64,000 nt of DNA from Trypethelium eluteriae. Its lineage: Eukaryota. The stretch's first letter is position 1, and every line of letters starts with the position of its first letter. The notes beneath the pieces are model-generated. The model was not told the origin of the DNA and did not search any database. It was given only the letters and a program-made list of their open reading frames with translations. The DNA lies in NCBI GenBank assembly GCA_051942245.1, contig JAVECL010000021.1:1-64000 (forward strand). Direction: 5' to 3'. Positions 35,039 to 37,247 of this stretch are shown piece by piece. Position numbers and translations under genes: made by a program.

Positions 35039-36956
35039 CTAGTCCTGATTTGTGTATGTCTCCTCAGACACGCCATCTTCGGGATATTCTGGGATGCGGA
35101 CAGTGAAGCGCTTTTCGACGGCACTGAGAATTTCCTGGTCTTGCTCACTGGAAATGAAGGAGATGGCGAGACCCTTGGTACCAAAGCGACCAGCACGTCC
35201 AACGCGATGGAAATACGAGTCCGCATCACTAGGAAGATCGTAGTTGATGGCAACGTTGATTTCGGCAAAGTCGATTCCGCGACCGAAGACGTCGGTGGCC
35301 ACGCAGATACGGGTCTTATTTTGCTTGAAGCCATTGTAGCGTGCAATACTGATGTATGTTAGAGCCTGTTCGTTTCTTTTTTCCCCCCTTTGAAAATGAA
35401 GCATGGACATACCGTTCTTCCTGACTGATACCCGAGTGCACGGCGATGGATGGGAAGTTGCAGGAGTTGAGAAGCTTGCTGAGTTCATTGGCGCGAGCGG
35501 TGCTCTTCACAAAGATGATAACCTGCTTAAAGGCCAAAGTGTCGAGGAACCAATTCAACTTGCGATTCTTCTCCTTCTCAGCTAGCTTGACCGTGTATTG
35601 CTGAAGTCCGTGGAGTGTGATCTTGCTGTCATCATCGGCATCACCAACAGTAATTTCGGTCGGATTCTTCATGAATTTCTTCGCGATGGGACGGATCTCG
35701 GGAGAGAGTGTAGCACTGAACATCATGACTTGTTTCTGTGGAGGGGTTTGGCGGAAGATGTCTTGCACATCACGGCGCATGTCTGAATGTGTGTCAGGTT
35801 CAGCCGTGACAGCCAACAGTTTCAATGTACATACCAATCTGCTCCAGCATCTTGTCGCACTCGTCGAGGACGAACATGGTAACGTTGCGAAGGTTGAGGT
35901 GTTTCTCACGGACCAGAGCTCCAAGGCGGCCCGGGGTGCCGACGATGATATTGGGCACTGATTCCTTACTCTTGAGAGAGTCGATGTCCTTCTGCAACGG
36001 GGTTCCACCATAGAAGACACCGGTCTTCACATTTGGCATCCACTTTTGGAAACGAGCATATTCGTTGCGGATTTGATGTGCCAGCTCACGGGTGTGACAC
36101 ATGACCAAGACACCCACCTCACCCTCAACAGGATCAAGGTTCTGAAGGGTTGCGAGGACGAAGATTGCCGTCTTGCCGAGACCAGACTTGGCCGAGACGA
36201 GAATGTCGGTGCCGAGGATAGCCTGAGGAATGGCACGTTGTTGGACTAGAGGCGGCGGAGGAGTTAGAGAAATGTTCGCGAAAATGGTACGGTAGTGGGG
36301 ACGATCCGTGCGATCGTCCGTCCATCTCTCATAATCCTCTTGAAGCAATGGTAAACGTCTGGCCACCTTTTTCTGCATCGAGAGAAGTGATACGATACGG
36401 GAACACGCCTCCCCCAAATCCTGGAGCATTCTCAATTCCTTGTGCTTGCGCTCAGTATTCCACCCAGTGATCTGTTCGCTTTCGCAATGTGATCGAGGTA
36501 AGGAAACGATAAGCCAAACATAGCCCGTTTGCTTCCGGTGGTTTCCCCACCGGGAGTCATCCGTTGATGACAAACTCGACACCACCAGCCAAGCCGTATG
36601 ATGGTTTCAGGACGTCAAAATTATTGTAACCCTTCTCATCGATGAATTCATTGCTTTATTCTTCCAAAGATGGACGGACGATCGGCGATTTGGGTAAAGG
36701 GAAGAAGTTTTTTTTGGAGTAACTAACCATCCGATGGATGCTCAAAACCGCTGTCGGCGATGGCCTTGGTAAGCTCGCCCTTGAGAAGAAAGTCGCGAAA
36801 CCCGCTCGAATGGATACCAGCGTAAGAACCCTTCTGGTCGGCATCTCCACCACCGGCGCCGTCTGCTTTCTTGGCGTCTCCATTGGCAGCAGTGGCGACG
36901 GGCTCCGTCTGGAGCTCCTCGTCAGAGTAGTCGATGAGATCTTCTTCGGCAGACAT
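35039..36956 (-). CDS. SUB2: DECD-box RNA helicase Sub2/UAP56 (4 exons; intron 1 = 36246-36727)
   Basis: [85 protein letters not shown]. Confidence 0.96.
36311..36684 (-). ncRNA. Candidate structured intronic RNA element in SUB2 intron 1
   Basis: Perfect 17-bp inverted repeat (36311-36327 / 36668-36684) enclosing nested helices and several hairpins; see findings. Confidence 0.6.
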
Positions 36957-37247
36957 GTTGACAGCTGACGAAGTGAGGCAAGATAAATAAAAGGTCCAAG
37001 TGAAGTGGTGAATAAAGGATCAACGGAGTCGCGTCGGACAGAAGGTTGCTGCCACAGATGGCTGTAGCTTCCGCAGCTAGAGTGCAGACGCTGGCAAAGC
37101 GCGCAGCCTACGGAGTCCGGACGTAGGGGAGTGGAAGGTAAGAGGAAGGATGGTGAAAAGTTGTGGAGAGATGGAGGTTAAAGGTGTCGAGAGGCTGAGA
37201 ACAAGGCAGGGCCGTGGGGCGACTAGAGGTCCAAATTCAAGCTTGAG

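Follow-up and report, generated by a model that had tools for sequence, protein, structure and literature searches.

Zipper stems improve the splicing of yeast RPS17B (Rogic et al, 2008; PMC2536676), and the long, inefficiently spliced intron of YRA1 sets the dose of its protein, with the unspliced RNA being degraded (PMC11585973; PMC2864733). Here we analyze intron 1 of a SUB2/UAP56 gene, which lies on the minus strand of a 64,000-nucleotide (nt) stretch of DNA from Trypethelium eluteriae (contig JAVECL010000021.1, positions 1 to 64,000; hereafter the window) and contains an inverted repeat able to form a long-range stem. Our data show that the element in this intron is genuine and old, present in a single copy, and selected as RNA. 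The stem looks like an old, undescribed control element, not junk or a transposon, and the regulatory reading put forward in an earlier note on this DNA is a plausible one with partial support. Spliceosome assembly and mRNA export both require Sub2/UAP56, and in yeast too little and too much Sub2 are both harmful; we know of no account of how its level is set. Through its two invariant 12-mers, further conserved helix, weak donor and early stop, the intron would be a sequence-defined handle on that level, and few long-range intron structures in fungi would be as deeply conserved. Since the element occurs in distant fungi, it could probably be tested in standard laboratory moulds, should they carry it.

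As in the S. cerevisiae RPS17B/RP51B zipper, the arms of the SUB2 stem lie downstream from the intron's 5' splice site and upstream from its branch point, and their pairing shortens the distance between the two (PMC2536676). Unlike that zipper, the SUB2 core is identical in sequence across deep lineages, and the structure is multi-tiered, with a second conserved helix (PMC2536676). The SUB2 stem also differs in its setting, a gene for a core messenger ribonucleoprotein helicase in filamentous and lichen fungi, where introns of ~50-60 nt are the norm, and in being combined with a weak donor and an early stop. In a further difference, control of YRA1 is described as depending on how large exon 1 is, on a branch point that departs from the consensus and on decay through Edc3 (PMC11585973; PMC2864733). 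With YRA1, which encodes an export partner of Sub2, the SUB2 intron shares an unusual length and suboptimal signals, and its retention gives a premature stop. To our knowledge, no invariant long-range stem is known in YRA1.

In Yarrowia lipolytica, retention of the SUB2 intron is up 47-fold in upf1 mutants (PMC6351623). This places retention and nonsense-mediated decay (NMD) at the same gene, though not necessarily the same intron, in another ascomycete; structure is not discussed in that paper. A survey in Aspergillus reported a local bulged hairpin of ~60 base pairs (bp) in 86 introns averaging 183 nt (McGuire and Galagan, 2008; PMC2467506). The general idea expressed there, that structure shortens the effective length of long introns, fits the SUB2 intron as well, but the SUB2 stem is long-range and not local (PMC2467506). 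The main text of that survey does not mention SUB2, helicase or AN8722, and the main texts of two surveys of structured RNAs in fungi (PMC5640933, PMC8216456) contain no SUB2, UAP56, helicase or DEAD, although the supplements of all three could list the element. We found no description of it in literature on SUB2 introns, autoregulation, retention, upf1 or the motif strings.

Intron 1 spans 36246-36727 of the window (482 nt, phase 1, GUUAGU...CUAAC...UAG). The earlier note had pointed out its length, and its bounds are upheld by a 1748-nt spliced contig from a sequencing run of a close relative: the joints of this contig fall exactly at 36245/36728, 35782/35835 and 35348/35413, the first of them skipping 482 nt. 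Introns 2 and 3 of the window gene are 52 and 64 nt. The perfect 17-bp inverted repeat that had been described was found again, as the 5' arm of the main stem at 36668-36684 (CGAUCGUCCGUCCAUCU; core 36668-36679, with C36680) and the 3' arm at 36311-36327 (AGAUGGACGGACGAUCG; core 36316-36327), both on the minus strand. At the 5' splice site, GUUAGU (36722-36727), the pyrimidine at +3 is suboptimal. The branch-point motif CUAAC (36263-36267) lies 18 nt from the 3' splice site, UAG (36246-36248), which agrees with the spliced contig. A retained intron is met by the immediate stop noted before, an in-frame UAG at 36723-36725 (G/GU UAG).

We scanned a metagenome collection for the exact 12-nt cores (GTCCGTCCATCT and its complement) at a spacing of 325-355 nt. 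Thirty-five contigs matched this two-core pattern, and tblastn placed the pattern between SUB2 exon 1 and exon 2 in 35/35, so the element is conserved in orthologous SUB2 introns, a point on which the earlier note had let its reading stand or fall. In 596 Gb of prokaryote genomes the same pattern gave one match (L036, on a Bacteroidales-type metagenome-assembled genome contig without SUB2), and chance therefore yields roughly one match at such a scale. The 35 contigs hold 21 different introns; with the window they make 22 unique sequences, on which all conservation counts below are based. Every one of the 22 sequences has the same 13 nt for the 5' core with one added C, and the same 12 nt for the 3' core; the 12 core positions of each arm were set by the search, while the thirteenth position of the 5' arm, the extra C, was free to vary. 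The best named protein matches of the contigs point to Pezizomycetes, Lecanoromycetes, Eurotiales-like and Dothideomycetes sources, labels that are weak because the SUB2 protein is so conserved.

Genomic DNA is the source of the contigs, which carry intron 2 in 30/30 measurable loci (47-60 nt) and intron 3 in 23/24 (48-56 nt). Intron 1 is always in phase 1, after HPS(D/E), and measures 464-496 nt in the 22 unique sequences, with 38-52 nt from donor to 5' core and 56-77 nt from 3' core to acceptor (22/22). The donor is GUYAGU throughout, as GUUAGU in 7 sequences and GUCAGU in 15. Upon retention, an in-frame stop follows at codon 2 in 7 introns and codon 4 in 13 (together 20/22); the two remaining introns reach theirs at codons 12 and 15. 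CUAAC is found 18-25 nt from the acceptor in 21/22; the remaining sequence, L023, has CUGAC at 14 nt. The same locus (L023, 1463-3004) has lost SUB2 intron 3, with exons 3 and 4 contiguous, and has kept the long intron 1, with the shortest flanks of the set (38 and 56 nt).

Between the arms, the picture is one of persistent length and changing sequence. About seven groups of interiors can be told apart, and alignment between them fails: identity is 57-62% in forced global alignment, the level of unrelated sequences; within one larger clade identity is 64-88%. By blastn, the window intron has no match to the 35 loci at 1e-3, and an nhmmer profile of the 21 other introns matches only the two arms in the window, so the window interior is not demonstrably homologous in sequence. 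The particular inner hairpins to which the earlier note had drawn attention are thus not conserved between lineages. That interior length persists while interior sequence turns over is a pattern that needs explanation. One interior feature does recur: GUCUC 53-62 nt and GAGAC 181-200 nt into the interior, in 18/22 introns (absent from the window, L019, L016 and L033).

Pairing of these parts was examined by covariation. For the main stem we used an alignment (A1) covering the core plus five outer and three inner extra pairs. Twelve pairs are constant, and in 7 flanking pairs both partners change; one of these 7 is CG in 12 sequences and UA in 4, and another is GU in 10, GC in 4, and AU, CG and UA in 1 each. 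Pairing holds in 82.7% of cells, compared with 34-48.4% when the partner is slid by 1-3 columns, and the covariation score of 0.117 (shuffles, 0.065) was reached by 0/500 shuffles. For the inner helix (GUCUC/GAGAC) we used an alignment (A2) of 19 sequences, from which the window, L016 and L033 were excluded as lacking the anchors. Here 6/15 pairs show compensatory changes (for example AU 12/GC 5 and UA 11/CG 6), 89.2% of cells pair as against 29-56% when slid, and the score of 0.234 against 0.170 was again matched by 0/500 shuffles. The slid controls are the safer comparison because the shuffle control ignores relatedness. A duplex test of the inner helix (90 + 110-nt windows) was uninformative for several sequences, and the column-based count is used in its place. 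Covariation, which had been suggested as a test, is thus seen both in the pairs beside the invariant core and in the inner helix. Applied to the whole 22-sequence alignment, RNAalifold returned the main stem only.

The main stem and inner helix together contain 35 G-U wobble cells. On the opposite strand these would read as A-C, and the sense RNA is therefore favored over DNA or an antisense transcript as the molecule under selection. The same cells bear on the idea that the inverted repeat and interior work at the level of DNA, as a promoter, enhancer or chromatin element within the SUB2 intron. Regulatory DNA is common in first introns, and the invariant 12-mers could be binding sites for a DNA-binding protein. 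We consider this DNA-level explanation very improbable: the wobble cells would be A-C mismatches in a DNA cruciform too, the compensatory changes preserve pairing and not sequence, and the distances to the splice sites are fixed.

We folded 12 of the 22 sequences. In 11/11 representatives other than the window, the main stem is part of the minimum free energy (MFE) structure, with 12/12 core pairs and P >= 0.95; contiguous arm pairs number 12-19. Formation of the 12-bp core alone reduces the distance from 5' splice site to branch point from 449-473 nt to 81-105 nt in 12/12 folded sequences, which bears out the proposal that the outer stem shortens the effective intron. In the L002 and L005 introns (L002:1430-1903), a second partial copy of the arm motif lies outside the core on both arms (GUCCAUC/GAUGGAU) and extends the stem past an internal loop; the flank duplex energy in this lineage is -21.1 kcal/mol (p = 0.013).

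On balance, and by a modest measure, we think it probable that SUB2 intron 1 is an ancient, structure-dependent, retention-prone intron, in which a zipper stem and NMD act together as a dosage valve for the helicase. A stack of long-range helices, made up of the invariant 12-13-bp core, its variable extensions and the GUCUC/GAGAC inner helix, would loop out ~340 nt. With the stack formed, donor and branch point would lie within about 100 nt of each other, an ordinary size for a fungal intron. The intron would otherwise be handicapped, having a non-consensus GUYAGU donor and roughly nine times the length of its neighbors, and given this weak donor and length, productive splicing may depend on formation of the zipper. 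Transcripts left unspliced would meet a stop within 2-4 codons and are expected targets of NMD. That a weak donor, a roughly ninefold length and an early stop (20/22) have been kept together suggests an intron meant to fail sometimes, with the failures cleared by NMD. The cell may put such retention to regulatory use, and the level of Sub2/TREX may serve as the signal, which is the least certain step.

A pure splicing aid is the simplest competing explanation. On this account the helices would just make a long intron spliceable, the interior would be retained for an unrelated reason such as intron-mediated enhancement, and there would be no regulated retention or feedback. The shortened branch-point distance and the great stability of the stem in 11/11 non-window representatives agree with it, as does the dominance of the spliced form in the relative's run (27.7 against 6.5), and long Aspergillus introns (PMC2467506) and the yeast RPS17B zipper (PMC2536676) are precedents. 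It leaves unexplained the joint conservation of the weak GUYAGU donor (22/22) and a stop within 4 codons (20/22), the persistence of ~340 nt where the gene's other introns measure 47-60 nt, and the fixed sequence of both arms. Strong NMD sensitivity of the Yarrowia SUB2 intron (PMC6351623) also speaks against it, and we regard it as unlikely.

Several observations weigh against the preferred reading of a regulated, structure-dependent intron. The main one is that a zipper needs pairing and not fixed letters, so the letter-for-letter conservation of both arms is left unexplained. Part of the 12-mer invariance was imposed by the exact-match search, which also bounded the range of interior lengths. 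Bulk folding energy of the window intron is unremarkable: its MFE of -141.9 kcal/mol compares with -135.1 +/- 6.1 in 100 shuffles (z = -1.12), 17/100 of which fold equally well, contrary to the earlier expectation of an energy beyond shuffles. Moreover, the window MFE structure lacks the 17-bp stem; the nested fold lies 0.7 kcal/mol above it and takes up ~0.20 of the ensemble, a share kept low by a local hairpin that can also take up the 3' arm. An outer CCAAG/CUUGG helix, visible in several lineages, is unsupported by duplex energies (z +1.2 to -2.65, 12 sequences) and is tentative; its CCAAG word is lost from the window. Finally, an interior contig in the relative's run, described below, may represent pre-mRNA, a stable product or another related organism in the run.

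The fixed sequence of the arms may be read by a protein. One such arrangement, which we put forward tentatively and with more doubt than the retention-prone intron itself, would make the invariant 12-13-bp duplex and the GUCUC/GAGAC helix a sensor for the TREX helicase. Excess Sub2, perhaps with Yra1, might clamp or open the nascent arms while the 340-nt loop is being transcribed; the zipper would then fail, the weak donor would go unused, and the transcript would be exported and destroyed. Such a loop could have steadied the level of Sub2 across Pezizomycotina since their common ancestor.

The inverted repeat and what it encloses could also be a mobile insertion: a miniature inverted-repeat transposable element (MITE), or an element of the introner-like kind, would have entered an ordinary intron of ~108 nt, its terminal inverted repeats being the 17-bp arms. 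The window lends itself to this view: the perfect repeat encloses 374 nt, the remaining flanks (43 + 65 nt) hold every splice signal, and the ends are palindromic CGATCG, so that GATC or CGATCG can be read either way and a 4-6-bp target duplication is possible. Introner-like elements fold stably. They occur in Dothideomycetes, where they resemble the SUB2 element in being long introns of the same fungal class (PMC4457414); 'secondary structure' is absent from the text of that paper. Unlike the SUB2 intron, which is single-copy, confined to one gene and old, they are multi-copy, lie in unrelated genes and decay fast (PMC4457414). The dispersed copies by which the earlier note would have recognized a MITE were not seen in the contigs of one run, on which the genome-wide copy number rests: in this probable source run, a single contig of 140,795 aligns to the 2.3-kb stretch at >=80%, crossing the intron without a break. 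Within the window there is no third copy of an arm at <=3 mismatches and no other copy of any part of the intron. With the arms at the same site of the same intron in 35/35 contigs from about seven deep lineages, a mobile origin is so improbable as to be nearly negligible. We rejected a MITE, since the terminal repeats are there but dispersed copies are not and the element occupies 35/35 orthologous introns, and likewise an introner-like element, the intron being single-copy and all 35 metagenome matches lying within SUB2.

The run of the close relative also contains a 319-nt contig that matches the interior at 36362-36680 (minus strand) with 36 mismatches and 0 gaps (283/319 = 88.7%). In the exons of this relative 112/1354 aligned sites differ, and 34/38 of the exon differences listed fall at third codon positions, which gives roughly 22% divergence there. 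With 88.7% identity and no indels, the interior thus evolves at about half the rate of silent sites. By comparison, both untranslated regions of the relative stop aligning 11-23 nt beyond the coding region. The word depth of the interior contig is 6.5, that of the mRNA is 27.7, and introns 2 and 3 are covered by no contig. This RNA evidence comes from one relative's run, whose RNA label is guessed, though the spliced contig shows that RNA is present.

Such a contig could be the trace of a hosted stable RNA: once the intron is spliced out and debranched, exonuclease trimming of the flanks up to the stem would leave a stem-closed RNA of ~370 nt, acting in trans or as a protein sponge. All of the contig falls within the part bounded by the stem, its start being 4 nt into the 5' arm; it is unlinked to exons, and its depth is about one fourth that of the mRNA. 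Between close relatives the interior is under constraint, and the invariant duplex could be a signal for protein binding or end protection. At a depth of 6.5, however, the ends of the contig carry little meaning, and it stops 35 nt before the 3' arm. The interior is moreover unalignable between lineages, and there is no C box, Rfam family or tRNA-like gene. We therefore hold a hosted RNA to be distinctly unlikely. Its most specific form, the intron-hosted box C/D small nucleolar RNA (snoRNA) suggested earlier, was rejected, as UGAUGA occurs in 0/22 introns and no Rfam snoRNA model matches within the intron. Rfam 15 gave no match in the window intron at E <= 10 or in the introns of 8 loci at E <= 1, so the element is new to Rfam, as had been supposed. 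No tRNA-like gene or short interspersed element was found in the intron, and inspection by eye of its short open reading frames and of an AUG within the 3' arm revealed no conserved frame. A proposed U1 mimic did not hold up either, since CUUACC is found in the window intron alone among the 22.

The SUB2 gene of the window has four exons, with the ATG at 36956 and the stop at 35041-35039 on the minus strand. Exon 1 (36728-36956) ends in ...GFEHPSD + G, a junction supported by the relative's spliced contig and by proteins P0003 and P0005; HPSD/VQQ is continuous across the exon 1/2 junction in the proteins of both close annotated relatives. Exon 2 (35835-36245), assigned from its translation, protein matches and the spliced contig, covers the Q motif and motif I region. 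Its peptide is 99% identical to that of a Trypethelium subeluteriae metagenome-assembled genome, 80% to Bathelium mastoideum and 70-76% to other Pezizomycotina SUB2 proteins, and the gene is therefore an ordinary SUB2 of a fast-evolving lichen-fungus lineage. The protein (35039-36956) is unusually diverged, as the 70-76% for exon 2 compares with ~85-95% among other Pezizomycotina; the stem core is unaltered. Two further short contigs of the relative's run (X2, records 5 and 6) match ~40-50 nt of exon 1 at 36910-36979, with unrelated sequence on both sides. They may come from other related organisms, alleles or alternative 5' ends, and the run may have more than one related source.

Inside the main stem of the window, two further helices are correctly nested, as had been described: one of 8 bp (36649-36656 with 36343-36350) and one of 12 bp with a single bulged U in its 5' strand (36632-36644 with 36376-36387). 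All 37/37 pairs of the three helices are canonical, and forcing the 17-bp stem alone in a constrained fold lets the 8-bp and 12-bp helices form unaided. The smaller features recorded earlier are also present, namely CCGGUGG-GGAAA-CCACCGG (36535-36553), GUCAUC-AACG-GAUGAC (36556-36571), the GAAA hairpin and CUUACCU (36496-36502). The GNRA-loop hairpin GCGAAAGCG (36477-36485) is a 9-mer also carried, with its order along the intron unchanged, by 7 sequences from the largest clade. The inner helix may have left two traces in the window: GUCCUG (36608-36613), which may correspond to the 5' strand (AUCCUGG in other lineages) and is unused in predicted folds, and, equally tentatively, UCCAGGAU (36418-36425), which is common to the 3' strand of 9 other sequences.

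The local hairpin that rivals the main stem for the 3' arm is formed by GGACGAUC and GAUCGUCC (36299-36319) and occurs in the window only. At 36299-36327 the 3' arm has a choice of partner, the 5' arm itself (17 bp) or this nearby partial copy of it (8 bp), which gives a two-state look confined to the window lineage. Donor and branch motif are themselves complementary in the window: GUUAG (36722-36727) pairs exactly with CUAAC (36263-36267), as it does in L004, L015 and L016, and several MFE structures pair both (structural distance 2). In GUCAGU lineages 4/5 of these positions pair, and donor-branch pairing is therefore not general. Two GUC/GAC triplets through which the 3' arm could pair near the 5' splice site were seen by eye and in MFE structures; this pairing was rejected as not conserved in GUCAGU lineages. 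Between donor and 5' arm, the window has a run of eight A residues in the sense strand (36708-36715), where other lineages have UUUCAUCCCCAAG.

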